NCBI GenBank assembly: GCA_003554585.1
Contig: PWGV01000163.1
Span: 6,071 to 70,070 of the forward strand
Reading direction: 5' to 3'
DNA: 64,000 bases
DNA from: Halobacteroidaceae bacterium
Lineage (GTDB): Bacteria > Bacillota > Halanaerobiia > B1SED10-174
This document shows, one piece after another, positions 4,559 through 63,369 of this stretch. The notes below the pieces were generated by a model. The model did no database searches, was not told where the DNA came from, and saw nothing but the letters and a program-made list of their open reading frames with translations. Every line of letters starts with the position of its first letter. The first letter of the stretch is position 1. Made by a program: the position numbers and the translations under genes.

Positions 4559-5869
4559 ATGCGTTCACGCTTAGTTTTGCTTGTACTTGCAATCGCTTTA
4601 CTGGGGAGTTTAATGTCCCCGCAGGAGGTTCAAGGCTCAGACAGGCGTATTTATATGCTGGAATACGCCTATCAATATATTCAGCATTATTATGTAGAAC
4701 AGGTAGAGGCGGAAAAACTGGCCGAAGGTGCCATTGAGGGAACACGAAAAGTCCTGGAAGAATACAGAGATGAGCTTGCAGAAAATGACTGGGAACAATT
4801 GATAGGGAAATTGGATGACAACCCTTCCTCTCGTTCACCTTTTCGAGGGGTAGAGAATCTTTATCGCCTGGTTCTTGATGAATACCGGGATGTCATTGAT
4901 CCCGACGAGGTGGTTGAAGGCGCCCTGGCCGGGATGATGGAGCAGATCGATCCATATTCCCATTATATGAACCCTGAAAGGTACGAAGAAATGCAGAGGG
5001 AAATGGAAGGGGAATACGGAGGAATAGGCGTCCTTATAACCCTCCGGGACGATAGAGCGACGGTTGTTGAAGCTTTTGATAATACTCCTGGGTACCAGGC
5101 AAACCTGCAGCCGGGAGATGTTATTATGGAAGTAGATGGAGAATCTACTGAAGGGATGCTCCTCAATGATGTTTCCAGCCGGATCCGGGGACCCAAGGGA
5201 ACCCAGGTCAATTTGACAATTTACCGGCCGGAGACAGAGGAAGAATTTGATGTAGATATTACCAGGGAAACAATAGAAATACCAAATGTTACCGGGGAAA
5301 TGAAGGAAAATAATATTGGCTATATTTCGATAATGCAGTTCATGGAAAATACCGGGGAAAAAGTTGCGGGGAAAATATATGATTTGAAGGAACAGGGGGC
5401 CGATAAATTTATCATTGACCTCCGGGGTAATCCGGGGGGCCTTTTAAAAGAAGCCGTTAATGTTGCCAGCCTGTTTATGCCCAGAGGATCTGTGGTCCAT
5501 GTTGCAGACCGCAGTGGGATCAGGGAAGTTCTGGAAACCAATCCCAACTACACACCTCTTGATCTGCCCCTGGTGGTCCTGGTTGACATGGGAAGCGCCA
5601 GCGGTTCTGAAATAGTGGCTGCTGGAATCCAGGAACAAGAAGTTGGAACCCTGATTGGAGAGAACACATTTGGAAAAGCAACTGTTCAGTCAATTCTTCC
5701 CCTGCCCGATGGTTCCGCCCTGCGATTAACCACTGCTCGTTATTATACCTCCAAACAGGTTTTTATCGAGGAAGATGGGGTTGAACCTGATATAATTGTT
5801 GAGAGAAGCGAGGACCTTGAGGAGGATAAACAACTGGAAGAAGCGATTGGGTTCCTTTCTGATAAATAA
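4559..5869 (+). CDS. Carboxy-terminal processing peptidase, S41 family (CtpA/CtpB-like)
   Basis: Signal/anchor MRSRLVLLVLAIALLG, a PDZ region (GGIGV...PGDVIMEVDG), IIDLRGNPGG, GSASGSEI (Ser nucleophile) and FGKATVQ (Lys). ATG 4559 preferred over TTG 4529. Confidence 0.85.
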   Translation: MRSRLVLLVLAIALLGSLMSPQEVQGSDRRIYMLEYAYQYIQHYYVEQVEAEKLAEGAIEGTRKVLEEYRDELAENDWEQLIGKLDDNPSSRSPFRGVENLYRLVLDEYRDVIDPDEVVEGALAGMMEQIDPYSHYMNPERYEEMQREMEGEYGGIGVLITLRDDRATVVEAFDNTPGYQANLQPGDVIMEVDGESTEGMLLNDVSSRIRGPKGTQVNLTIYRPETEEEFDVDITRETIEIPNVTGEMKENNIGYISIMQFMENTGEKVAGKIYDLKEQGADKFIIDLRGNPGGLLKEAVNVASLFMPRGSVVHVADRSGIREVLETNPNYTPLDLPLVVLVDMGSASGSEIVAAGIQEQEVGTLIGENTFGKATVQSILPLPDGSALRLTTARYYTSKQVFIEEDGVEPDIIVERSEDLEEDKQLEEAIGFLSDK

Positions 5870-5891
5870 ACGAGGGACAGGAGGTAGGCCG

Positions 5892-7064
5892 GTGCGAATT
5901 GGGTTTTTTAGCGAGAGTTATTACCCATATATAAGCGGGGTAGTCCGCTCCATTGACCTTTTTAGCAGGGAATTGCGGAGTCTGGGCCACGAGGTTTATA
6001 TCTTTGCCCCAGACTATTATGACAGCAAAGAAGAAAAATTTGTTTACCGCTTTCCCTCGGTGCCCACGCCCAATGCACCGGGTTTTCGCCTGCCCATTCC
6101 CTATATGCCTAAATTAACGGGAACAATCGAAAACCTGGACCTGGATATCATCCATACGCACTCACCCTTCCTGATGGGACGTTTAGCCTCCGCCCTGGCC
6201 AAGAAACTAGAGCTTCCTCTTGTTTTTACCTATCATACCAAGTATGAGCAGTATGTCCACTACGTTCCCTTCGCCCGCAAAACTGCTCGCAGGGTAACAA
6301 TAAAACTCACCCGGGATTTTTGCCAGCGATGTGATGCCGTAATCGCCCCAACGGAATACGTAAAAAAAATGCTTGAGCGCGAGGGTATTACTACACCTAT
6401 AGAAATAATTCCTACGGGTGTAGAACTGGATAAGTTCAGGGATGGAAGCACGAACTGGCTGCGCCGGAGGTACAGATTCCAGAAGGAAGATGAAATTCTT
6501 CTCTATGTGGGGCGGCTGGGAGAAGAAAAGAACCTCCCATTTCTCCTGGAAGTGGTCAGGGATTTGATGAAAAAAAATCCCCGGTTGTATCTCCTCCTGG
6601 TTGGTGGAGGGCCTGATGAAAAGCAATTCAGGCGGATGGTCAACGATTGGGACCTGGAACACAGGATTATTTTTACTGGAGTAGTTAGTCCCCGCAAGGT
6701 GGTCGACTATTACCTGGGGGCAGATGTTTTTGTTTTTCCATCTGTTACAGAAACCCAGGGACTCGTGATTCTTGAAGCCATGGCAGCAGGCCTGCCTGTT
6801 GTTGCGATGAATAGAGAGGGGCCTTCCACGGTAATTGACTCTGGTAAAGACGGGATCCTTGTTCAACCCAATAAAACGAGTTTTAAACAGGGTCTGCTCC
6901 AGATTTTAGAAAACCCTCAGTATCGGGATGAATTGAGAGCAAATGCCGGGGAAAAAGCCCGTTCCCTTTCCTCGGTGGAAATGGGACTCAGGCTGGAAAA
7001 ACTTTACCGGGGATTACTGGCATCTAAAGATGCTCAAAAGGAAACAAACAGGAGCCAGAGCTGA
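5892..7064 (+). CDS. GT4 (group 1) glycosyltransferase
   Basis: VRIGFFSESYYPYISGV N-terminus, and C-terminal FVFPSVTETQGLVILEAMAAGLPVV (EX7E-type motif). GTG 5892 lies behind a GGAGGTAGG RBS. The upstream part of the listed ORF overlaps ctp. Confidence 0.85.
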   Translation: MRIGFFSESYYPYISGVVRSIDLFSRELRSLGHEVYIFAPDYYDSKEEKFVYRFPSVPTPNAPGFRLPIPYMPKLTGTIENLDLDIIHTHSPFLMGRLASALAKKLELPLVFTYHTKYEQYVHYVPFARKTARRVTIKLTRDFCQRCDAVIAPTEYVKKMLEREGITTPIEIIPTGVELDKFRDGSTNWLRRRYRFQKEDEILLYVGRLGEEKNLPFLLEVVRDLMKKNPRLYLLLVGGGPDEKQFRRMVNDWDLEHRIIFTGVVSPRKVVDYYLGADVFVFPSVTETQGLVILEAMAAGLPVVAMNREGPSTVIDSGKDGILVQPNKTSFKQGLLQILENPQYRDELRANAGEKARSLSSVEMGLRLEKLYRGLLASKDAQKETNRSQS

Positions 7065-52692: not shown

Positions 52693-53847
52693 TTATTTGT
52701 TTTGTTCTTTTAGTTGTTGCGCAAATGAAACTGCGAGGTTAGTATTAAATTTAAATTCAGAAAAAGCTCTATCCAGGGCCGTAAGGGTCCTGAAAATTCT
52801 CCCTGAATCGGAATTGTAACCCATATGGCCCAAACGCCAGATTAAACCATCCAGAGGGCCCAGGCTGCCTCCGATTTGAACCCGGTACTGTTCCCAGAGG
52901 TGTTGCCGGAAGGAGTTATCTGAGATTCCGCCTGGGATAAAAAAGGCGCTTACGGTGCTGGCGAAATTGCTCAGCGGATAGAGCTCCAAGCCGTTAGTTA
53001 ATAGACTCCCCCGGACTGCTGCTGCAAGCTGTTCGTGGTTTTCAAGGACCCAGGGCCAGTTTTCAAGGGCAATTTCACAGGCCACACCAAGGGCCGCGAT
53101 ATCTGGGGCTGGCTGGGTGTAGGGGAAAGTTCCCTTTTTAAGCCAGGTATCCTGCCACACTTTTAAATTTAAGTAGAACCCCCGAAAGGGTTCTTTTCTT
53201 TTTTCGATTTTTTCCCAGGCTCGCGGGCTCAGGGAGAGAAAGGATAATCCTGGAGGAGCAGAGAGGGCTTTCTGGCTGCCTCCCAAAATTACGTCCATCT
53301 TGTTTTGATCAGCATTAACCCGGTCTCCACCAATTGAAGCAACTGCATCAACAATGGAAATTATTCCTTTTTCGGAAAGATAAGGGCAGATCTCTTCCAG
53401 TGGATTGAGAATCCCCGTTGGGGTTTCACAGTGAACCATTGTTGCCAGATTAATCCCGGGGTTTTGTCCTAAGATTTCATCGAGGTCATCCACAGTTATG
53501 GGTTTTCTCCAATCTTTTTCCACGAGGATTGGTTTTCCCCCATAACTTTGCACAAAATCTGCTAATCCTTTTCCGAAAAGACCGTTGGCCAGGCAGAGAA
53601 CCTTTTCGCCAGGTTCAACCAGGCTGGCAATGGAAGCTTCAAGTCCCAGCATTCCCTCGCCGGCCAGGATAAGGACGGGGTTTTGGGTGCCCATAATCCT
53701 TCCCAATTTCGCAGCTGTTTCGCTGTATATTTCTGTAAACCTGGAGTCAAAATCAGGGTTCAACCGGCAACCGGCCATCGCCTCCTGGACCCGGGGATCT
53801 GTTGCAGTGGGTCCAGGGGTAAAAATTAAATCTTCCTGGTAATGCAT
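52693..53847 (-). CDS. Class V aminotransferase (AGXT / serine-pyruvate / PucG-like family)
   Basis: LIFTPGPT N-terminus and the PLP lysine context GGSQKALSAPPGLS. ATG 53847 lies behind an AAAGGAGGA RBS, 13 nt after the mobB-like stop. Confidence 0.85.
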   Translation of the reverse strand: MHYQEDLIFTPGPTATDPRVQEAMAGCRLNPDFDSRFTEIYSETAAKLGRIMGTQNPVLILAGEGMLGLEASIASLVEPGEKVLCLANGLFGKGLADFVQSYGGKPILVEKDWRKPITVDDLDEILGQNPGINLATMVHCETPTGILNPLEEICPYLSEKGIISIVDAVASIGGDRVNADQNKMDVILGGSQKALSAPPGLSFLSLSPRAWEKIEKRKEPFRGFYLNLKVWQDTWLKKGTFPYTQPAPDIAALGVACEIALENWPWVLENHEQLAAAVRGSLLTNGLELYPLSNFASTVSAFFIPGGISDNSFRQHLWEQYRVQIGGSLGPLDGLIWRLGHMGYNSDSGRIFRTLTALDRAFSEFKFNTNLAVSFAQQLKEQNK

Positions 53848-53860
53848 GGTATTTCCTCCT

Positions 53861-54622
53861 TTAGGAATCGGGGGATATTTCAATTTTTATTTCCTGGTGG
53901 GGTTTATAACCCTCCAGGGTTTGCAGATAACCTTTAATAATTCCGGCCAGGGCTTCCTGGACAAATGGAACCATGGGAAGTTCCTTTCCGCCAATACTTA
54001 CTTTCACCCGGCCATCCTGGATTACACACTCGCTGGCCTGGCCCTTATCCCTCAGGATATCCGCGAGGAGTTCACGGCAGGACCTGCCGCAGGCCTCACA
54101 GCACTCGGGAGGGAAGTCAGGAAGTAGAGGAGGTGTTTTTTCCAGGATCAGGGCGGCCAGTTCCCGAAACTTTTTCCGGGCATCGAAAAGCGGAGGGTAA
54201 TCGAAAGGGAGCTTGTTTTCACCCTGGGAAGATATCAGGCCTGAAATTGCAACAGTTCGGGGGTTTTTTAATTCTTCCACATCACCGGTGTTTCTGGCGC
54301 AGAGGATCTGGGGAACATTTAGTTCCCGGTCCCCCTCGATAATTACAATGTCGTGGTGATAAAAAGATAGGATTTCCTGCAGGGGTAGCTGGTAGGGGAA
54401 AATAATATTGGTCTCAAAAAGCCCCCGGCCGGTAACAAGTTCGGCCCCGGCTTCCCTATGACGGTGAGTATTTGACCCGGGTGTCTCCATGGAGAATTTC
54501 TCATAATGAATGTCCTTAATGGAACCCACGCTTAAATTGCGGTGTTTGAATTCCCGGATTAAATTTTCCACCGTTGTTGTTTTTCCAGAACCGCTTATTC
54601 CTATTACTGAAATAACTTTCAT
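53861..54622 (-). CDS. MobB-like P-loop NTPase with Cys-rich C-terminal extension
   Basis: [22 protein letters not shown] (MobB-type Walker A) and DIVIIEGD. There is an extra ~90-aa C-terminus containing PPECCEACGRSC. TAATG overlap with ecfT. Confidence 0.65.
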   Translation of the reverse strand: MKVISVIGISGSGKTTTVENLIREFKHRNLSVGSIKDIHYEKFSMETPGSNTHRHREAGAELVTGRGLFETNIIFPYQLPLQEILSFYHHDIVIIEGDRELNVPQILCARNTGDVEELKNPRTVAISGLISSQGENKLPFDYPPLFDARKKFRELAALILEKTPPLLPDFPPECCEACGRSCRELLADILRDKGQASECVIQDGRVKVSIGGKELPMVPFVQEALAGIIKGYLQTLEGYKPHQEIKIEISPDS

Positions 54623-55362
54623 TAAATCAACCCTTTCAGGTGAAGTGTAACCATGATTAAGCCTCCGGTAAGGCTGAGGATAATTGTGGTGTAATCTCCT
54701 TTCTTGAGCTTAAGAGAATGGAGAAAAGTCCTCCGGGGATAGGACCGGAAGGCCCGGGCTTCCATGGCCAGGGCAATTTGTTTGGAACGGAGAATGGCCA
54801 TGGTTACAAGGGGTAAAAAAAGGCTTTTATAAATCTTCAACTGCTGGGACCAGGGCATTCTTTTGAGGTCAACTCCTCTCAGCTGGAGGGCGGTAAAGAC
54901 ATCATTTGCTTCTTCCCGCAAAAGGGGCAGAAACCTGATGCCCAGGGATACCATGTAGGCAAGTTCATAGGGTAAAGACCAGGCTACAAGGCCCTGGACA
55001 AAACGGCCGGGAGGTGAACTTGCCAGAATTAACCCACAGCAGAGGATAATGAAAAGCCGGAGAACAAGACTTGTTCCCTGGAGAATCCCCTCCAGGGTTA
55101 CAAGGGAGTACTCGCCTACTGTAATTAAGGTGGTGGTCCCGGGGTAGAAAACTGCCTGGATCAAGACAAGCCCCCCCAGGATTATCACCAAACGGCGCAT
55201 TCTCCTGGCAATTTTCAGCGGGTTGCAGTTAAATAAGGGGAGGAGAACCAGGGCCAGGAAAAGGATTGGAACCAGGTAAATGGGGTGGTTAAAAATAACG
55301 GCAAGGGTCGCCAGAACTCCACTTAAAACAAATTTACTTCGGGGGTCTAGTTCTTTCAGCAT
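54622..55362 (-). CDS. ecfT: ECF transporter transmembrane T component (CbiQ/EcfT family)
   Basis: Multi-TM protein carrying the two Ala-Arg-Gly-type coupling helices (ALQLRGVDL and LAMEARAFRS). Confidence 0.85.
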   Translation of the reverse strand: MLKELDPRSKFVLSGVLATLAVIFNHPIYLVPILFLALVLLPLFNCNPLKIARRMRRLVIILGGLVLIQAVFYPGTTTLITVGEYSLVTLEGILQGTSLVLRLFIILCCGLILASSPPGRFVQGLVAWSLPYELAYMVSLGIRFLPLLREEANDVFTALQLRGVDLKRMPWSQQLKIYKSLFLPLVTMAILRSKQIALAMEARAFRSYPRRTFLHSLKLKKGDYTTIILSLTGGLIMVTLHLKGLI

Positions 55363-56033
55363 TGGACCACCCCTTCCATGAGCTGGCCTTTTTTTAATTC
55401 TCGGACGCAGCTGGCCAGTTTTCCGGCAAACTGGTGGTCGTGGCTGATAAGAAGTATTCCCCGGTTTTTTTGTAGCAGTTTATGGAGGTAAAAATAGAGT
55501 TCTTCTTTGCGCCGGGGATCCAGGCCTGTTGTTGGTTCATCGAGGATGAAAAAGGGTGGGTCTAAAGCCATAATTGCTGCTAAAGCAAGGCGCTGTCTTT
55601 CCCCCTGGCTCAGGGTGAAGGGGAATTTTTCCCGCAGGCGGTCAAGGTCAAAAAATTTAAGAAGTTCGGTTACTTTTTCCCGGTTTTCCTCGGAATTTTT
55701 ATTTCGAAACTGAAGGGCAAATCCCACTTCTTCTTCAACACTGGAACAGAATAACTGGCGGTTGGGGTTTTGAAACAAATAACCCACACGCTCCCCGATT
55801 TTTGCCAGGGACAGACTTTCGAGTTTTTGCCCGTCAACGGAAATCTGTCCCTTTTCGGGCTTGATAATCCCAATCAGGATTTTGCTCAGGGTTGTTTTTC
55901 CCGACCCGTTGGCTCCCAGGAGAGCAAGGCATTCTCCGCTGTGCAGTTCAAGGTTAATATTTTCCAGCAGAAAAGGCTGATCTTTTTGATACCGGAAATA
56001 AAGGTTTTTAGCGATTAAAGCCATTGCATTCAA
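55356..56033 (-). CDS. ECF/ABC transporter ATP-binding protein (A' component)
   Basis: GANGSGKTT, LSQGERQRLALA and [10 protein letters not shown]. Confidence 0.9.
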   Translation of the reverse strand: MNAMALIAKNLYFRYQKDQPFLLENINLELHSGECLALLGANGSGKTTLSKILIGIIKPEKGQISVDGQKLESLSLAKIGERVGYLFQNPNRQLFCSSVEEEVGFALQFRNKNSEENREKVTELLKFFDLDRLREKFPFTLSQGERQRLALAAIMALDPPFFILDEPTTGLDPRRKEELYFYLHKLLQKNRGILLISHDHQFAGKLASCVRELKKGQLMEGVVQC

Positions 56034-56707
56034 CTCCAGCGGGCCTGGCCGTTTTCTAGGTGTAACAAACGGTCGGAGGCTGCGAGATTTTCCAGTTGAT
56101 GGTCAACCAGGATTAAACTTTTTCCTGCTTTTTTAAGGGGGAAGATGATTTCCTGGACCCTTCGCCGTCCTTCTTGATCCAACTGGGACAGGGCTTCATC
56201 CAGAATCAGGGTATGGGGTCTCAAAGCAAGAATTGACCCCAGGGCCAGGAGCTGCTTTTCACCCCCGGAAAGCTGGGCAGGATTGGTATAACGGTACTGG
56301 GTCATTCCTGTTAGTTCAAGAACTTCTTTTATTCTTGTTTCAATTTCTTCCGGAGGCAGGCACAGATTTTCAGGACCAAAGGCAATTTCTTCTTCCACTG
56401 TCGTGCAGAACAACTGGGTTTCCGGATCCTGGAAAACCATCCCTATCTTCTGGGACAGCCGGGGAAGAGGAATAGAAGAGAGGGGCTGTTCATCTACCAG
56501 GATTTTCCCCATGATATTTCCGGGAAGGTGCCGGGGAATAATCCCGCTTAAACAGTAGCACAGTGTACTCTTGCCGCAACCGCTGGGACCTGTAATTCCA
56601 ATTACTTCTCCCGGGTTTAGTTTAAAGTTTAGGTCTGTCCAGAGGGGATAATTATCATCCGGGAAGGAAAAGGTAAAATTTTTAACGACAAGCCTGGTTC
56701 CGTTCAT
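56030..56707 (-). CDS. ECF/ABC transporter ATP-binding protein (A component)
   Basis: GPSGCGKST, LSGGEKQLLALG and ILDEALSQLD. 4-nt overlaps with both flanking genes. Confidence 0.9.
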   Translation of the reverse strand: MNGTRLVVKNFTFSFPDDNYPLWTDLNFKLNPGEVIGITGPSGCGKSTLCYCLSGIIPRHLPGNIMGKILVDEQPLSSIPLPRLSQKIGMVFQDPETQLFCTTVEEEIAFGPENLCLPPEEIETRIKEVLELTGMTQYRYTNPAQLSGGEKQLLALGSILALRPHTLILDEALSQLDQEGRRRVQEIIFPLKKAGKSLILVDHQLENLAASDRLLHLENGQARWS

Positions 56708-57228
56708 TCTACCGTCACCCGGGTCAGATACTTACACCAGCGCATGGCAAACTCATCCTGGAGGACAACTGTCATGAAGGGACCATCCCCGCCTTCTTCC
56801 CTCGTTTCAAGCCATTCCCCTTCCCGGGCGTAGACCAGGTAAATATTATTTTCTTCCAGGACTTCCTCGGAACTGTAGGCGATGGTATAACCATCTGCAG
56901 CCCGGGCAATTACCCGGTCAGCTTCTCCGAGGGTTTCGGGGAAGACATGGTTTAGGAATTCATTAAGAGGAACTCCGGTGAAAAAGATCTCGGTATCCTC
57001 TGCTGTGCTGCTGCGCCTGATGGTCCTGATGTTTGTTGCTTTTAAATCGAGGATTTCATCAAGGGTAATATCAACTGCTTCACCGGCAAAACTTATCCGC
57101 AAAATTCTTTCCCTTAATAACTCTCTTTCTTCCTCTACACCGCCGATATTGGCAATGGCCAGAGAAATAATAATGATTGCAAACAGGCCCATAATCCAGT
57201 AAATTTGCTTTGGTTTCAATTCTTTCAT
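56704..57228 (-). CDS. N-terminally membrane-anchored protein with one SUOX-fold (oxidoreductase molybdopterin-binding-like) domain
   Basis: Single TM helix IYWIMGLFAIIIISLAIANIGG. Then FTGVPLNEFLNHV...ARAADGYTIAY...GPFMTVVLQDEFAMRWCKYLTRVTV, which follows the G-x-L...DGY...P-x-R-L-V-V-P...VK-x-L-x-I pattern of PF00174-type domains. Confidence 0.55.
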   Translation of the reverse strand: MKELKPKQIYWIMGLFAIIIISLAIANIGGVEEERELLRERILRISFAGEAVDITLDEILDLKATNIRTIRRSSTAEDTEIFFTGVPLNEFLNHVFPETLGEADRVIARAADGYTIAYSSEEVLEENNIYLVYAREGEWLETREEGGDGPFMTVVLQDEFAMRWCKYLTRVTVE

Positions 57229-57231
57229 TTG

Positions 57232-59103
57232 CTAATTACCTCCTTGCAGGTGAAAAAAGGGGACAATTAGGTCCTGGTAATAAAAACGGCCGTGGTTGCC
57301 CCCTTCAGGGGTTTTTCTCATTCCATGATCCGGCATAATTAAAATATCTCCCGGCCAGAAAGAGGAAATTTCCTGGAGATATCCGTCCAAAACAGAGAGA
57401 GTCTCCATGGTCCTTTGGTCGAAAGGTCCGTATTCGTGGCCGGCAATATCCAGGGATTTGAAGTGGACAAACAAAAGGTCGTAATCTTTCTTAACCATAT
57501 CCCGGGCAGTGATGATTATTTCTTCGTCACCGCGGGGGTGGAGAACTGGAGCAATCTCCGAATAAAGGGGATTTATTGCTCCCTGCAGGCTAGCGACCTT
57601 TAAACCCTGTTCTGCGGAGAGATCAAGGATGTTTTGAACCAGGGGTTCCCGGTCTCTCCGCTGGTGAATTCCGGTCCCGGGAGGAAGTTCCCCGGTTAAA
57701 AGGGAAGCAGTATTTACATTGGTAATCGGGGGGTAGGCTACCCGGGCCATTTTTGTTTCCTCCCGGGAGCCGAGGAAGGGAATTAATTCGTTTTCCCGGG
57801 CGTACAGGAACTGGTCAAAACCAAATCCATCAACCAGGATTAATAGAATTCTTCGGTTATCAGCCATAAGGGTATTCATTTTGGGTACAATGTCAGCGAT
57901 AGAAATATCCGGAGGCTCAAACATTACACCCGCCAGGCTACCCAGAATTTCCTGTCCTTCTTTATCAACCAGGGTAAAGGAATTATTCTCAAAGGCAATA
58001 TGCTGTCCCTCGGGCTCGTAGAGCGCTTCCTCTCCTTTCAGGTTTACGGCGAGGAAAGGGCCGGTATATTCTGCAAAATATTCCTCGAGTTTAATTAAAG
58101 GCTCTGCCTGGTTTTGAGCCAGGAATTCTCCTGGAGTCATGTTTAATAGATTTTTCCTGGGAGTAACGATGCCCAGGGGAGCAGTATCTCCCAGGACAAT
58201 AATCTCCCCAATTCCCTGCAGAATATTTTCTTTCCCGGCCCCACCCAGGTTCCAGGTTCTGCTTTCCTCCTGGATTTCCAGGAAAATTTCATCCAAAGCA
58301 GTGGAGGAAAAATCTATGTTCTCGCCATTTTCTCCCCGCAGGTATACCTTCTGCAGACCAAGTGGTTCGGCTTTTTCCAGAACTTCCTCCAGGGAAATTC
58401 GCTCCTCTGAATAAGAGGAGATGGTGTAGGGGTTATCTACATCGCCTTTAATTTCAAGCGGGGAAACTGCATTTTTATCACTGCCTGTATCCGAACACCC
58501 GGTTAAAAATAGGGAGAAAATTAGCAGGGCGAAGAGCCCCGGTTTCAAAACGTTTTTGAAGAGGGGAGTTTTTTCCAACTGGCGCAGTAATTGAAAACAG
58601 ATAATTCCCCCGCCTCCCCCGGAAAAGGCTCCCAGGAAAAGAGACAGGAGGAGAGGTATAAGGGGCAGGCGGAAAAAAACCACATTAACCAGGAATGTTC
58701 CGCTCAGGTTAGCAAGGGTTCCGGCCATAAAGCAGTGAAAAATTGTGGCTTTCCGGGGTTGCCCAAAAAGAAAAAGCCCAAAATCTACCATTAAGCCGGG
58801 GAGAATATAGGTCATAAGGCTTAAAACCCCGTGGGAACCCACAACTCCCAATGCCATTACAAGGATGGCCTGGATTAAACAGGTTATTGTTGCAGCTCCA
58901 TTTTTATTGACCAGAAACCGGGCCATGACAATCCACATCATATAAAGGCCACCGGCCAGGGCTCCTCCGGGAATAAAAAGTGGAGCAGTGATCATATGCA
59001 CAAGGGGAGTGATTATGGGTTTTGTTGCTATACCCAAAACAGCCATCATGGCCATCAGGGTCAGGTCGAACATGGAAAACCGCAAAAGGTACCGGTGCAG
59101 CAT
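57232..59103 (-). CDS. Fusion protein: ECF S-component-like 6-TM domain, internal lipobox-like TM, linker domain, and C-terminal alkaline-phosphatase-superfamily nucleotide pyrophosphatase/phosphodiesterase domain
   Basis: Residues 1-185 are hydrophobic (LMAMMAVLGIATKPIITP...). Then LFALLIFSLFLTGCSDTG. The C-terminus has ILLILVDGFGFD, YPPITNVNTASLLTGELPPGTGIH, FVHFKSLDIAGHEYGP, IMPDHGM and GNHG, which are NPP/PF01663-type metal and nucleophile motifs. Confidence 0.7.
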   Translation of the reverse strand: MLHRYLLRFSMFDLTLMAMMAVLGIATKPIITPLVHMITAPLFIPGGALAGGLYMMWIVMARFLVNKNGAATITCLIQAILVMALGVVGSHGVLSLMTYILPGLMVDFGLFLFGQPRKATIFHCFMAGTLANLSGTFLVNVVFFRLPLIPLLLSLFLGAFSGGGGGIICFQLLRQLEKTPLFKNVLKPGLFALLIFSLFLTGCSDTGSDKNAVSPLEIKGDVDNPYTISSYSEERISLEEVLEKAEPLGLQKVYLRGENGENIDFSSTALDEIFLEIQEESRTWNLGGAGKENILQGIGEIIVLGDTAPLGIVTPRKNLLNMTPGEFLAQNQAEPLIKLEEYFAEYTGPFLAVNLKGEEALYEPEGQHIAFENNSFTLVDKEGQEILGSLAGVMFEPPDISIADIVPKMNTLMADNRRILLILVDGFGFDQFLYARENELIPFLGSREETKMARVAYPPITNVNTASLLTGELPPGTGIHQRRDREPLVQNILDLSAEQGLKVASLQGAINPLYSEIAPVLHPRGDEEIIITARDMVKKDYDLLFVHFKSLDIAGHEYGPFDQRTMETLSVLDGYLQEISSFWPGDILIMPDHGMRKTPEGGNHGRFYYQDLIVPFFHLQGGN

Positions 59104-59106
59104 TAT

Positions 59107-60159
59107 TTATACCTCCCCATCAAGAGCCTTGATCAATAGAATTCCTCGGATGTGGAAGTTGCGAGGGAGGTGGGAAAAATGGACTCGAAAACTCCCGTCA
59201 TCAAGCTGTTTTATTATTCCCTGCTGGATGTCCTCTAAAGAAATTTCAACTGAATAACCATCAACAGCCTCAATTTTAAGGCCATTGCTCCAATCCAGGC
59301 CGGCTTTTTCAACAAACTTATCCAGGGCGATTCCTTCTTCCCCATTGATTTCTGCTGGGGGAAGATCCTTAATCCAGTTGGACCAGAAAACAATTTTTTC
59401 TCTACCCAGTTGTATTGAACTCAAACCCTTTACCTGGCGGCCCGCGTGCAGTTTCTCTCCGGAAAAAGTTGGGACTCCATTATCCAGGGGGTCTATATAA
59501 GTGTCGGGGATGTCTGACAAACGTTCGGTTTTTGTGTGGCCGTCTGCCGCAGAAAAGAAGATGAAATCACCAATTGGGTTGAGTTCTTCAACGATAGAAG
59601 AGATCAAAACCCGGGAATCAATAACTCCCATTTTTTCGGCCAGGGAAGAGAAAAGGTAAACAGCATCCACCTCTATTTCAAACAGGCCTCCTTCCAGTTC
59701 CGCACGGACGCAATTGCGAACCCAGTACATCATTTCTTCTCCGGGGATTACAACCCGGAGCGGGTATTCATTTTCAGGAAGTTTTTGCCCATCATCCCGG
59801 AAAATGGCCAGGAGGATATTCCGGTTTCGGAATATTTCGGGGGGAATCTGGACAACGTAGCCGTCCTCAGCAATGAAACGGAGCCCTTCCAGGCCTTCCT
59901 GGGAGTAACCTTTATTTTCGAGGATGGTCTGCAAAAGAACTCCCTGGTAGGTCCGCTGCTGTTCTTCGACCACGATAGTTACTTCTTTTTGCTCCAGGCT
60001 TTTGAGAAAAACAGGAGTTAAACTGAGCTTTTCTCCGTCGGGGAGAATTATTTCGAAAACCCATTCCACCCTGCCGCATGGTCCTGCTGCAGCCTGGGGT
60101 AATAGGGTTGTTGTTAGAAGTAGAAAAGCTAACATAATAAAAAGCGCAAGTTTTTTCAT
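59107..60159 (-). CDS. Secreted protein with two to three tandem SUOX-fold (molybdopterin-binding-like) domains
   Basis: Sec-type signal MKKLALFIMLAFLLLTTTLLPQAAAG with no twin arginine. Repeats: YQGVLLQTILENKGY...FIAEDGYVVQI...PLRVVIPGEEMMYWVRNCVRAEL; SAADGH; and GIALDKFVEKAGL...IEAVDGYSVEI. Confidence 0.6.
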   Translation of the reverse strand: MKKLALFIMLAFLLLTTTLLPQAAAGPCGRVEWVFEIILPDGEKLSLTPVFLKSLEQKEVTIVVEEQQRTYQGVLLQTILENKGYSQEGLEGLRFIAEDGYVVQIPPEIFRNRNILLAIFRDDGQKLPENEYPLRVVIPGEEMMYWVRNCVRAELEGGLFEIEVDAVYLFSSLAEKMGVIDSRVLISSIVEELNPIGDFIFFSAADGHTKTERLSDIPDTYIDPLDNGVPTFSGEKLHAGRQVKGLSSIQLGREKIVFWSNWIKDLPPAEINGEEGIALDKFVEKAGLDWSNGLKIEAVDGYSVEISLEDIQQGIIKQLDDGSFRVHFSHLPRNFHIRGILLIKALDGEV

Positions 60160-60233: not shown

Positions 60234-60263
60234 GAAAATAAAAAAACCTCCGGAAAGGGAGGT
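60234..60263 (-). terminator. Intrinsic terminator acting as the riboswitch expression platform
   Basis: The minus strand reads ACCTCC-ctttcc-GGAGGT followed by TTTTTTTATTTT. Lies about 75 nt upstream of the first operon gene. Confidence 0.7.
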
Positions 60264-60283
60264 CAGGTACAGACTAAGGTACC

Positions 60284-60377
60284 ACTCCTTTCCACACTGG
60301 GAGGCACAGCCGTTTCCAGCAGTGCCCTATCGGCTTGAGGCCAGCCCAACAAGGGGTAAGGCGTTCAAGCTCGGAGT
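60284..60377 (-). promoter_or_regulatory. Moco (or Tuco) riboswitch-like aptamer (cis-regulatory RNA)
   Basis: Minus strand: ACUCCGAGC...GCC-uua-CCC-cuuguu-GGG-cu-GGCCUC...GGCAC-u-GCUG-GAAA-CGGC-u-GUGCCUCCC-agugu-GGAAAGGAGU. P1 pairs ACUCC with GGAGU. The CCGAGC, GCCUC, GCCUCCC and GGAAAGGAG blocks match my recollection of the Moco RNA motif. Not verified with a covariance model. Confidence 0.6.
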
Positions 60378-60487
60378 CAATTTTCTGTTCCTTTTCTTAA
60401 TTCGTGAATACCCTGGAAACCCCTTTATTTTTTGCAGGAATTTTTATAATAAGAGGAGAAATTGTTCAAAAATGTACAAGACGAGGG

Positions 60488-62236
60488 GTGGTTTTCCTGG
60501 GAAGAAAAATTATTTTTTATTTTTTCGTTATCTTTCTTTTTCTTTATTGCCCCACTGTGGATGCTTTTGATATCCCAGAAGTAAAAATTGAAGATGGAGT
60601 TTTACGGGCTGGCTCGGGGTGGAGAATTGATCTTGAAGGACTGCGGATAGGATTTTTAAGTGGGAGCCCGGAGGAGATTGGAATCCAGCATGGCCTTTTA
60701 ATGACCGAAAACCCGGAAGAACTCAGGCAAAAAATGCTGGATAAGCTACCTTTTGCTCATCCAGAGACCCTTGGAGAGAGGTTCGCGGGGTTTTTTCTCA
60801 ATACCTATGCCCGTTTTCAGTTTTACCCTGCTTTTTTAAGGCATACACCAGAAGAATATATTCGGGAAATGCGGGGCTTTGTCCTGGGGGCCTCCCGGGG
60901 GGAAGAAGACGACATTTACGATGTTATGATGGGTAATGCTGCTCAAGATCTTGAAATCGCTGCCTGTTCAGCATTCGCTGCCTGGGGGAATGCAACCGAA
61001 GACGGGGAAATTTACGTGGGCAGGAACCTTGACCACGGGGGAATGCTGGATCTGGCCAGCTACCAGTACCTGGCAATTTATGACCCCGAAAGGGGATACC
61101 GTTTTGCCGTCCATAATTACCCGGCTTTTGTGGGGACAATGAGCGGAATGAATGAAAAAGGGCTGGTTATTAGCTCAAATTATTCAATGGCCCGCAGGGA
61201 GGAAACGACAATTAATGGACTCCCCTACATGTTTATGTTACGCAATGTTCTCCAGAACGCAGCTACTATCGATGAAGCCCTGGAAATAATCAAAAATACC
61301 CCTCGAACAATTGGGCTGACCCTGCTCCTGGCTGACGGGAAAACGCCAGAAGCTGTTGTAGTGGAAATAACTGCTGATAGGATGCAGGTAAGAACTGGAG
61401 AGGATTATATCTTCGCTGCCAACCGCTATTTACATCCCGAGATGAAAGACTATCAGGCCGGGGGCTGGCTGGCTTCAGCCCTGCGGGAGAAGCGCTTTCA
61501 GGAGTTGATTACCGATGAATTCTGGGGTCAGATTGATGTCTCCGTCACCCGTGATATCATGCGGGATCGATTGCCTCCTGAAGGTTTTAAACAGGAAAAC
61601 TTCGGGCAGGGTATCAACCATGAAGTGAATATGGCTTCCATGGCCATGGTTCCCTCCCGGGGGGAATTCTGGGTGGGAGCAGTAGATGATTCTGAAATTC
61701 CTTTTGCGGCTGATGCCCACTTTGTTGGGATTGATGTCCGGAAAATCTGGGAAACCGGGGAACCACCCCGGGAACCGATTGGTATTCTGGAGGCAACACC
61801 CCGGGAGGGGTACGAGGGTTACTGGTTTAAGGCTCGGGAAGCCAACCTTCTTTTAGGCCAGGGAAAAAGAGAAAAAGCCCTTGAACTCCTGGAAGAAGTT
61901 TTATCTGTTTACCCCCGGGCAGAAATGCCCCTGCTTCTGGCCGGGAGAGCCCTGATTAGAGAAGGGGAAATAGATAAAGGGATTGAATACCTGGAGCGTT
62001 TTGCAACCCTTGAGTATAACAGCGAACCGTTCCATCAAATGGAAGGTTATTTCTGGCTGGCTGTGGTTTACGATCAGGTTGGAGAGAGGGAAAAGGCAGT
62101 TGAGTATTACCGAAAAAGCTTGCAGGTCCAGATTGAAGATATGCCCCCGGCCGAAGGCGGTTACCGTTATTTCGCCGAAAAGGGAATTGAAACTCCGCTA
62201 AAGTTAACTCCCGAGGGGAGGGTATATATTCCGTGA
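60488..62236 (+). CDS. Exported C45-family (acyl-CoA:6-APA acyltransferase-like / Ntn) hydrolase with C-terminal TPR repeats
   Basis: Signal-like N-terminus VVFLGRKIIFYFFVIFLFLYCPTVDA from GTG 60488. ACSAFAAWGNATEDGEIYVGRNLD is the Ntn Cys context. TPR-like C-terminus (ALELLEEVLSVYP..., AVEYYRKSLQ). The start is uncertain. Confidence 0.7.
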   Translation: MVFLGRKIIFYFFVIFLFLYCPTVDAFDIPEVKIEDGVLRAGSGWRIDLEGLRIGFLSGSPEEIGIQHGLLMTENPEELRQKMLDKLPFAHPETLGERFAGFFLNTYARFQFYPAFLRHTPEEYIREMRGFVLGASRGEEDDIYDVMMGNAAQDLEIAACSAFAAWGNATEDGEIYVGRNLDHGGMLDLASYQYLAIYDPERGYRFAVHNYPAFVGTMSGMNEKGLVISSNYSMARREETTINGLPYMFMLRNVLQNAATIDEALEIIKNTPRTIGLTLLLADGKTPEAVVVEITADRMQVRTGEDYIFAANRYLHPEMKDYQAGGWLASALREKRFQELITDEFWGQIDVSVTRDIMRDRLPPEGFKQENFGQGINHEVNMASMAMVPSRGEFWVGAVDDSEIPFAADAHFVGIDVRKIWETGEPPREPIGILEATPREGYEGYWFKAREANLLLGQGKREKALELLEEVLSVYPRAEMPLLLAGRALIREGEIDKGIEYLERFATLEYNSEPFHQMEGYFWLAVVYDQVGEREKAVEYYRKSLQVQIEDMPPAEGGYRYFAEKGIETPLKLTPEGRVYIP

Positions 62237-63369
62237 AAAGTTTAACCCTGGCAATTTTAATTTTTAGCCTTTTATCTGTTTCCTCGATCCAGGTAGAAGC
62301 TTCAGACAATTGTAAAATAGAAGAAATTATTGTGCTGGGCCTGACCAGGACGGAAGAAAGCGTTGTGCTTTCTCAGCTTCCTTTTTCGGAAGGAGATGTC
62401 TGGAAAGAAGAGTACCGGAGATGGACCCTGCGCAGATTACAGCTTCTGGATTTCTTTGCCTATGATCCGCTGCGGGTTATTGTTGAGCCCATAGAGGATG
62501 AAAAATGCCGGGTCATTGTTCGAGCTACAGACCCGACAGTATTATACAAAGAGCCCATGAAATTTTTGCTAACAAATGCAGTGAATCTACTTTTCCGGCA
62601 ATTTGAACTTTCCCTTTTTAATCCCGGGGGAATTGGAAGCAGTTTTAAGTTTTATGGCAGCTGGGGTAACTACAGGAACCTGGGGATGACAGTTTCCAGT
62701 CCCATTGGGGCGGGAATTGGTTCTGCCGGTGGACAAATTTATTCAAACTCAACAGGATTCTATAAGGAAAGTGGACTGGTATTTAAGGGCGACTACAGCA
62801 ACTGGGTTGATCCTTCAATTCGTTTAACGGGTGGAATTGATTACCGGACTGGGGAGCTCAACGAACAAAAACAGATAATTATGTTACCCCGGGGAGAATT
62901 ATATTATGATAATGAGTTTAAAGGAGAGATAAAGACTTCGGCAGGCTTTTTTTTCACCGGGGAAAAACCTTTTATCCGGCTTCAGGGGCAGGCTATGGGA
63001 GAACTGGGGTCATTTGTTGGATTAATCCGGGGCGGTTTCATTGCAGGGGCAAACCCACCCTTAAATTATCACTACCGCCTGGGAGGGTTTGGACTAATTC
63101 CCCTGCGGGGTCAACCAGTTGAACTGGCCCGGAATTTTTTATTGGGAACTGTAGAATACCATTTTCAAACCCCTCAGTTTATCCCCATCCTTTTTGCTGA
63201 CGGGGGCTGGTATAGCCCCGGGGGAGAAGGAGGAAATATTAATATCGGGGCAGGACTGGCAATGGAAATTCCCCTCGGGGTAATCAGGGCTGATTTTGCC
63301 TGGCATCCCTTCCGGGGGACTACTGGCTTTAATATTGGTTTTGGCCACAGCTACCGCCCTCCATTTTAA
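62233..63369 (+). CDS. Omp85/BamA-superfamily outer-membrane beta-barrel with a single POTRA domain
   Basis: Signal peptide ending VEASD, a POTRA-like segment IEEIIVLGLTRTEESVVLSQLPFSEGDVW, alternating beta-strand pattern, and the terminal aromatic signature GFGHSYRPPF. GTGA overlap with the upstream gene. Confidence 0.75.
   Translation: MKSLTLAILIFSLLSVSSIQVEASDNCKIEEIIVLGLTRTEESVVLSQLPFSEGDVWKEEYRRWTLRRLQLLDFFAYDPLRVIVEPIEDEKCRVIVRATDPTVLYKEPMKFLLTNAVNLLFRQFELSLFNPGGIGSSFKFYGSWGNYRNLGMTVSSPIGAGIGSAGGQIYSNSTGFYKESGLVFKGDYSNWVDPSIRLTGGIDYRTGELNEQKQIIMLPRGELYYDNEFKGEIKTSAGFFFTGEKPFIRLQGQAMGELGSFVGLIRGGFIAGANPPLNYHYRLGGFGLIPLRGQPVELARNFLLGTVEYHFQTPQFIPILFADGGWYSPGGEGGNINIGAGLAMEIPLGVIRADFAWHPFRGTTGFNIGFGHSYRPPF

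Follow-up and report, generated by a model that had tools for sequence, protein, structure and literature searches.

Sec-exported SUOX-fold proteins as probable pterin-capture modules of a riboswitch-controlled, putative importer for a molybdopterin-type cofactor

Introduction

The closest described counterparts of the proteins treated here are the PruR proteins, Sec-exported, non-catalytic and cysteine-less binders of pterins, in which Y104 and W160 sandwich the pterin ring, N102 forms a hydrogen bond to it, W70 occupies the former cysteine position, and the tyrosine is held in common with YedY (PMC11194511). We compare with them two exported proteins of related fold, SUOX350 (350 residues) and SUOX174 (174 residues), encoded in a single operon within a 64,000-nucleotide stretch of a Halobacteroidaceae bacterium genome (contig PWGV01000163.1), called “the window” throughout. 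On the evidence assembled below, both are probably non-catalytic pterin binders of the PruR type, exported by Sec and acting as the capture or chaperone modules of an energy-coupling factor (ECF) importer, whose cargo would be a molybdopterin-type cofactor, either the complete molybdenum or tungsten cofactor (Moco/Tuco) or its molybdopterin (MPT) core.

In the SUOX enzymes, molybdenum is coordinated by a cysteine on a β-hairpin, C185 in chicken sulphite oxidase (SO) and C102 in YedY. The cofactor that these enzymes carry is regarded as too labile for sharing. In nematode work, uptake of dietary cofactor is reportedly demonstrated, with the carrier said not to be known. For other scarce compounds, high-affinity binders at the surface or in the periplasm feed transporters, as BtuG does with BtuB and as substrate-binding proteins do for ATP-binding cassette (ABC) importers; Group I ECF importers, too, are said to have extra extracytoplasmic parts (reportedly the subject of work by Rodionov et al. 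in 2009). In the literature that we searched there was no paper describing the SUOX350/SUOX174 family or any bacterial Moco/Tuco importer. A trace of the system may nevertheless have been recorded some time ago: Regulski et al. (2008) found that “putative sulphite oxidase” genes of S. wolfei are preceded by Moco RNAs lacking the P3 stem and listed this as an exception (PMC2408646).

Results

Fold and domain architecture

Both proteins match the Oxidored_molyb family (PF00174), SUOX350 with 29.6 bits and SUOX174 with 26.5 bits against a gathering cut-off of 24, and in both cases the match spans only profile positions of about 69–160 out of 169, the C-terminal half. Models computed with AlphaFold2 (AF2) on family alignments reached a pLDDT of 91 and a pTM of 0.81 for SUOX350 and a pLDDT of 88.5 for SUOX174. 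Foldseek and VIA comparisons of these models bear out the SUOX fold that had been proposed for the two proteins from the letters alone, locating it in residues 31–160 of SUOX350 (domain D1) and residues 42–173 of SUOX174; the Foldseek probability to SUOX-fold structures was 1.0.

The six best PDB matches of SUOX174 are all PruR entries, annotated as “pterin binding protein” (7kom, 7rkb, 7kos, 7kou, 7kp2), with TMt values of 0.70–0.76, and the top Foldseek matches of D1 are 7kom (TMt 0.76) and 7kp2, the latter superposing with a VIA Z of 15.9 over 123 of 138 residues at 2.1 Å. By the same measure D1 is as close to SoxC (Z 16.0) and SorA (Z 15.3) as it is to PruR, and VIA Z values of 11–16 over about 130 residues were obtained for SoxC, SorA, SO and YedY together. 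The likeness to PruR emerged from the fold search alone, a phmmer search of PDB sequences with SUOX174 having returned nothing meaningful, while at the level of the family profile there are sequence matches to both SorA (E 1e-7) and PruR (E 5e-3). Relative to the enzymes the domains appear shortened: the structural alignments begin at about residue 149 of chicken SO and residue 68 of SorA, leaving the N-terminal SUOX segment uncovered, and no Mo-co dimerisation domain (PF03404) was found among Pfam matches at E values up to 0.01.

The remainder of SUOX350 consists of two further segments, D2 and D3, the latter aligning to the C-terminal two-thirds of D1. Judged from these profile alignments, D2 and D3 are SUOX-derived repeats related to D1. 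The domain repeats expected from the first reading of the sequence thus exist, although they are unequal, with one complete domain followed by two shortened ones.

Cysteines and conserved residues

A HMMER search of 1.8 billion representative sequences yielded 284 relatives, against four from a word-based homologue search, and residue columns were counted in 66 homologues of the SUOX350/D1 family and 27 of the SUOX174 family. The canonical molybdenum-ligand cysteine of the hairpin is present in only 1/66 and 1/27 of these, respectively, and is missing from both window proteins. At the tip of the hairpin, S-x-G or SS is found in 41/66 and 13/27, the D1 domain of the window having EEQQ instead, and a tryptophan in the hairpin, corresponding to the PW motif of PruR, occurs in 1/66 and 0/27.

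The sequence-only reading had pointed to another pair of cysteines, considered equivalent, near the end of D1 and in SUOX174. They prove to be out of register by three residues, as the cysteine of D1 lies at W+4 (YWVRNC) and that of SUOX174 at W+1 (RWCK). Nor is the first one a family trait, being kept in 2/66 homologues, with leucine usual at the position; the second is present in 16/27, replaced elsewhere by asparagine, valine, alanine or serine, and the paralogue in the same genome has asparagine.

Conservation is concentrated elsewhere. In D1, D99 and Y101 are found in 66/66 homologues, G100 in 61/66 and W146 in 65/66, accompanied by P133, R135 and M144-Y145; in the SUOX174 family, D112 and G113 are found in 27/27, Y114 in 25/27, W164 in 24/27 and K166 in 27/27, together with a GG-x-GP motif. 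The hairpin-to-tyrosine spacing is 35 residues here against 34 in PruR, and aspartate stands for the asparagine of PruR. Given this spacing and the shared D/N-x-Y motif, the D-G-Y motif and the tryptophan are likely to be equivalent to N102, Y104 and W160 of the PruR pterin sandwich. The shortened repeats have retained less of the pattern: D206 and G240 are invariant in D2, where leucine or phenylalanine replaces the tyrosine, and D3 retains D-G-Y without the tryptophan.

Export signals

Signal classes were assigned by motif and hydropathy rules. SUOX350 begins with MKK, a hydrophobic core of 17 residues and then AAA/G, a Sec-type signal peptide of the signal peptidase I (SPI) class, and SUOX174 has a single helix (residues 6–39 in the AF2 model) that we read as a membrane anchor with a stalk; neither contains a twin-arginine (RR) motif. 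Both assignments agree with those made earlier from the sequence alone. A cryptic signal for the twin-arginine translocation (Tat) pathway, which would have undone that reading, is absent as well: both open reading frames (ORFs) are present as predicted and neither can have a longer in-frame start, that of SUOX350 opening at the first possible start codon with the ribosome-binding site AAGGAGG placed 9 nt ahead of the ATG, so that a hidden RR-bearing extension is impossible.

The same holds for the family. Among the best 152 of the 284 homologues, 107 have a lipobox, 29 an SPI-type signal or anchor and 14 no signal (these are probably truncated), and by motif rules none of the 152 has the canonical Tat motif S/T-RRxFLK, a loose RR being found in four. 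The missing Tat signals are not due to a missing Tat pathway, because the host genome has two tatC genes and a 752-residue molybdopterin enzyme on another contig (C92) with an N-terminus containing SRRSFLK. This Tat-signal oxidoreductase (C92:914-3172 and 5184-5933) has a 4Fe-4S partner and a tatC gene close by; in a cofactor auxotroph, it would have to receive imported cofactor before Tat export.

The operon and its riboswitch

The operon comprises eight genes on the minus strand, headed by a riboswitch, as assigned from the ORF list with Pfam and TIGRFAM-type profiles (Table 1). The 5′ arm of the terminator-like hairpin could pair alternatively with the GGAAAGGAG strand of the aptamer; as read from the sequence, such pairing could disrupt the terminator, which fits an OFF switch, and the element would accordingly silence the operon when ligand is bound. 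The genome contains only two copies of RF01055, each heading a SUOX trio. The second, at 79 bits, leads an importer-less module on contig C146 (L013:2997-6774, minus strand) in which a 376-residue SUOX protein, a 501-residue lipoprotein phosphodiesterase and a 184-residue SUOX protein follow one another.

Table 1. Features of the riboswitch-controlled operon in the window.
Feature	Position	Strand	Content and evidence
Moco/Tuco riboswitch aptamer (RF01055), P3 stem absent	60269..60388	-	Rfam cmscan 62.1 bits, E 2e-14, full model 1-135
Terminator-like hairpin with T run, directly after the aptamer (expression platform)	60245..60264	-	Pattern scan
SUOX350, 350-aa exported SUOX-fold protein	59107..60159	-	Sec signal peptide (residues 1-25), then D1, D2, D3; PF00174; AF2
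D1, complete PruR-like SUOX domain (residues 31-160)	59680..60069	-	Foldseek, VIA, column counts
D2, SUOX-derived short repeat (residues 163-262)	59374..59673	-	hhalign D2~D3 probability 97%, E 3e-11; column counts
D3, SUOX-derived short repeat (residues 263-350)	59110..59373	-	hhalign D3~D1 probability 97%, E 8e-11, 76 columns
623-aa fusion protein	57232..59103	-	ECF S component (PF09819), lipobox-like transmembrane segment, half-SUOX repeat M1, M2, outward-facing phosphodiesterase (PF01663); Pfam
M1, half-SUOX repeat on the phosphodiesterase protein	about 58174-58491	-	Profile match to D2/D3, probability 95-97%
SUOX174, 174-aa membrane-anchored SUOX-fold protein	56704..57228	-	Transmembrane and stalk helix (residues 6-39), PruR-like domain (residues 42-173; 56710-57105); Pfam, AF2
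EcfA ATPase	56030..56707	-	TIGR04520 199 bits; PF00005
EcfA' ATPase	55356..56033	-	TIGR04520/TIGR04521 about 180 bits
EcfT transmembrane component	54622..55362	-	PF02361 CbiQ 94.6 bits
MobB-like P-loop protein with Cys-rich C-terminal domain	53861..54622	-	PF03205 80 bits; NF011064 MobB/FeS-domain 117 bits
Class V aminotransferase	52693..53883	-	PF00266

The S component belongs to PF09819, which we take to be the family containing YkoE, and the phosphodiesterase part of the 623-residue protein to the alkaline-phosphatase superfamily. The aminotransferase at the end of the operon was considered as a member of the system and rejected, being shared, among the 49 loci described next, with the closest relative (L018) only. 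Elsewhere in the window, a 378-residue ORF on the plus strand (62233-63369) had no match in the Pfam scan of the window proteins.

Conservation of the operon across genomes

Related loci were collected by a pattern scan based on a 12-sequence alignment, with one genome per species, and sorted by tblastn with the window proteins. The 49 loci obtained are from Bacillota, Actinomycetota, Sumerlaeota, Thermotogaceae, Limnochordia and Coriobacteriia. The full colinear set, running from SUOX350 through the S component, phosphodiesterase, SUOX174, EcfA and EcfA' to EcfT, is present in 24 of them, and a MobB-like gene follows EcfT in 23 of the 24, the last (L043) stopping at a contig end. Two more loci have a rearranged version of the full set, and in six the contig stops downstream of the S component gene; nine are importer-less, with SUOX350 and phosphodiesterase genes and in three of them SUOX174, and the remaining eight have SUOX-family genes only (SUOX174 also in one), the transporter and phosphodiesterase genes not being nearby. 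With a covariance model made from the two riboswitches of the host genome, a Moco motif was found upstream and on the same strand in 37/49 loci, and Rfam scored RF01055 above its gathering score in all 15 of the loci tested.

Most loci encode the S component and the phosphodiesterase separately, the fusion in the window being a local variant seen also in L018. A typical relative has a separate phosphodiesterase protein of about 495 residues with its own transmembrane segment or lipobox, and L044, L050 and L052 have longer ones of 565–666 residues. Two Clostridia loci (L024:3352-8818 and L034:7056-9004) have Moco riboswitches in tandem, and between these and the SUOX350 gene lie additional genes, among them one for a RIO1/APH-like kinase and, in L024, those of a FecCD/ABC/Peripla_BP_2 importer. 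An exported FMN_bind protein is encoded directly upstream, and some homologues of 450–540 residues seem to bear an FMN_bind-like N-terminal extension; the FMN_bind protein may be a redox partner on the outside.

Cofactor pathway and co-occurrence

In the host genome (2.89 Mb, 91.5% complete) we found none of MoaC, the MoaA C-domain, MoaE and MoeA, nor MogA, the sole MoCF_biosynth match being CinA. The only genes of the Moco pathway that were found are the MobB-like gene of the operon and a MobA-like gene for a nucleoside triphosphate (NTP) transferase of 208 residues, which overlaps a tatC start on contig C5 (L067:744-2079, minus strand), so that only the final, nucleotide-adding step is retained. 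The genome has consumers of the cofactor all the same, with five AOR-family genes and three molybdopterin enzymes of PF00384. One of the latter, a formate-dehydrogenase-like protein (contig C120:8831-11518), has an in-frame TGA that appears to be read through and is probably a selenocysteine enzyme.

Of the 49 carrier genomes, 19 encode MoaC and 18 encode MoaA, the two occurring together; both are missing from the other 30, of which 20 have AOR and 25 have no MoeA. Across 401 genomes sampled evenly from the phylum, with the family scored by a strong match, it was found in 16/38 (42%) of genomes with AOR and without MoaC, compared with 15/201 (7.5%) of those with both, 1/77 of those with MoaC and without AOR, and 2/85 of those with neither. 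The naive odds ratio is 9, with p about 5e-7, a value that overstates the case because related genomes are not independent. All 17 sampled carriers with AOR and without MoaC also lack MoaA and MoeA; they represent 8 families and 13 genera and are 90–100% complete, and one is a closed one-contig genome. Incompleteness of metagenome-assembled genomes was considered as the main cause of the missing pathway and rejected, as the presence of MoaA and MoaC is concordant over the 49 genomes, and the completeness of these 17 carriers, closed genome included, and the retention of MobA also speak against it.

Discussion

Proposed capture of a cofactor outside the cell

A cysteine-less domain of a cofactor-binding fold, encoded in a transporter operon that senses the cofactor, most likely serves to catch ready-made cofactor outside. 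That these are extracytoplasmic capture proteins rather than enzymes was the proposal of the sequence-only reading, which reasoned that Sec export leaves a protein with no Moco loaded beforehand. It is supported on grounds other than the cysteines then invoked: that argument was wrong and is not needed, given the family-wide loss of the ligand cysteine, the matches to PruR, the use of Tat by another protein of the same genome, the ECF operon and the enrichment in genomes without the pathway. We infer the identity of the ligand, the substrate of the phosphodiesterase and the role of the MobB-like protein from this setting. Hand-over of substrate to the S component is suggested by the constancy of the gene order and by the joining of the S component, in one protein, with a phosphodiesterase part that itself bears SUOX-derived domains.

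The system might then work as follows. Cofactor would be released by neighbouring or lysed cells, and the surface phosphodiesterase would remove GMP or CMP from its dinucleotide forms. The SUOX domains would hold and shield the pterin between the conserved tyrosine and tryptophan and pass it to the S component, with EcfAA'T pumping it inward, where the cytoplasmic MobB-like protein may take it over. AOR enzymes could use the imported cofactor directly, while for enzymes of the molybdopterin-guanine-dinucleotide type (PF00384 family) MobA would re-add the nucleotide. Once the internal pool was full, the Tuco-type riboswitch would switch the operon off.

Several points weigh against this proposal. 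Free Moco is very labile, and an extracellular pool of it is not established. The system is not confined to auxotrophs, since 19/49 carrier genomes retain the MoaA/MoaC pathway; it is the larger carrier genomes that keep it, as is the case for the salvage of B12 or thiamine. Conversely, the family is missing from 20/38 genomes with AOR and without MoaC, although 10 of those 20 are less than 90% complete, and the enrichment test ignores genome kinship. The FMN_bind partners of some relatives hint at redox chemistry, and the equivalence of D-G-Y and tryptophan to N102, Y104 and W160 is built on motif spacing, not on residue-level superposition. The main doubt, however, is one of size: D1 and SUOX174 share the minimal size of PruR, and the authors of the PruR study judge its shortened cleft too small for Moco (PMC11194511).

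Alternative cargoes and functions

The same doubt gives rise to the best of the alternatives, which we nonetheless consider unlikely, namely that the system carries a precursor or degradation product of the pterin type, such as cyclic pyranopterin monophosphate (cPMP) or another small pyranopterin or pterin, instead of the finished metal-loaded cofactor, and that the SUOX domains bind only a bicyclic pterin, as PruR does. The cleft of PruR, in a domain of this size, has been described as fitting small pterins only (PMC11194511), and the MoeA kept by 5/30 carriers without MoaA and MoaC would make metal insertion after import possible. Against this, the host and 17 further carriers have no MoeA, MoaA or MoaC, and the host has no MoaE either, so that a precursor from before the MPT or metal-insertion stage could not be completed; in addition, a phosphodiesterase of the nucleotide-pyrophosphatase type is better suited to dinucleotide cofactors than to cPMP.

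It is considerably less probable that the SUOX-fold proteins capture tungstate or molybdate for an ECF metal importer controlled by a riboswitch in the manner of the mod and tup operons. Metal transporters of the ECF class do exist (CbiMNQO, NikMNQO), and Moco/Tuco riboswitches often regulate molybdate and tungstate transporters (PMC2408646). Carriers without MoaA, MoaC and MoeA would be unable to use the imported metal, however, the conserved residues are aromatic and of the pterin-sandwich type rather than an oxyanion site, and the conserved phosphodiesterase and MobB-like partners would have no role in oxyanion uptake.

Only a very small chance is left for true extracytoplasmic oxidoreductases that load their cofactor after export, perhaps with serine in place of the cysteine ligand and with FMN-binding partners. 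Such a reading can draw on the serine motifs that take the place of the C-x-G of SUOX enzymes at the tip of the hairpin, on the exported FMN_bind proteins that adjoin, or appear fused to, homologues at some loci, and on the annotation of such genes as sulphite oxidases by Regulski et al. (PMC2408646). The window D1, however, does not have even the serine motif, the alignments do not reach into the N-terminal SUOX segment, no dimerisation domain was found among the Pfam matches at E values up to 0.01, and an OFF riboswitch that senses the cofactor would be an odd control for an enzyme that uses it, the case listed as an “exception” by Regulski et al. (PMC2408646). The nearest fold and size, Sec export and the missing cysteine might further suggest periplasmic sensors of a signalling pterin that modulate a partner protein, as PruR does, and do not feed a transporter, which is just as improbable when the operon neighbours include no DcpA-type diguanylate cyclase/phosphodiesterase and are consistently ECF components, a phosphodiesterase and a MobB-like protein, the PW motif is missing from nearly all homologues, and control by a Moco/Tuco riboswitch points toward cofactor supply. 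As for the oxidoreductases, Moco is not known to be inserted after export.

Implications

Taking capture of a molybdopterin-type cofactor as the working explanation, the SUOX proteins could well be, with about equal chances for and against, the receptors, outside the cell, of a system dedicated to taking up the finished Mo/W pterin cofactor, which would be the first of its kind in prokaryotes. If so, many anaerobes (of the Bacillota, Actinomycetota, Sumerlaeota, Thermotogota and others) would be natural Moco/Tuco auxotrophs that run AOR-family and PF00384 (formate-dehydrogenase-type) enzymes on the cofactor of their neighbours, and cofactor cross-feeding in anaerobic communities would have a molecular route. 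Genomes that encode several tungsto-pterin enzymes without the whole biosynthetic pathway would be explained, as would the old “exception” of Tuco-type riboswitches before “sulphite oxidase” genes (PMC2408646). For annotation there is also a warning: entries named “molybdopterin-dependent oxidoreductase” that have lipoprotein signals are probably not enzymes.

Comparison with known systems

Of the known systems, the SUOX molybdoenzymes (1sox; SorA, 2blf; SoxC, 2xts; YedY/MsrP, 1xdq) share with the proteins described here a homologous fold and a common C-terminal P-x-R...Y-W-V-K motif. The enzymes bear their cysteine ligand on a long hairpin and possess additional segments, at the N-terminus and for dimerisation; their periplasmic bacterial members, such as YedY/MsrP and SorA, pass through Tat in folded form, the others being intracellular, whereas here the cysteine is gone, the domain appears shortened and the signals are of the Sec or lipoprotein type.

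The transporter resembles the Group I ECF importers (CbiMNQO/NikMNQO(K/L), YkoEDC) in having a dedicated EcfAA'T with its own S component, riboswitch control and outward-facing accessory proteins. It differs in what these accessories are, putative pterin binders of the SUOX fold and a phosphodiesterase; the literature searched contained no ECF system with SUOX-fold or phosphodiesterase accessories, or with a molybdopterin-type substrate. A looser analogy may be drawn with BtuG and the ABC binding proteins, which likewise serve a transporter as binders of a scarce cofactor, although their folds are unrelated and the transporters belong to another class.

The closest likeness is to PruR (Atu3496 of A. 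tumefaciens with its Vibrio and Klebsiella homologues; 7kos/7kou, 7kom, 7kp2, 7rkb). It extends to a minimal SUOX fold of about 130 residues in a small stand-alone domain, Sec-type export, the absence of the molybdenum-ligand cysteine and of catalytic partner domains, the best structural match for both proteins (TMt 0.70–0.76, VIA Z 15–16) and, as far as motifs can tell, a conserved tyrosine and tryptophan at the spacing of the pterin sandwich. PruR itself is a single domain that partners the c-di-GMP enzyme DcpA in the monapterin-type pterin signalling of Proteobacteria. In the system described here, found in anaerobes of other phyla, the domain is multiplied into one full and two short copies within one protein, a half-copy carried by the phosphodiesterase protein and a further copy anchored in the membrane, the PW motif is absent, D-G-Y takes the place of N-x-Y, and the partners are an ECF importer, a surface phosphodiesterase, a MobB-like protein and a Moco/Tuco riboswitch. 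We file SUOX350 and SUOX174 as a variant of the PruR kind in which the domain has been multiplied, partly shortened and recruited to an ECF importer.

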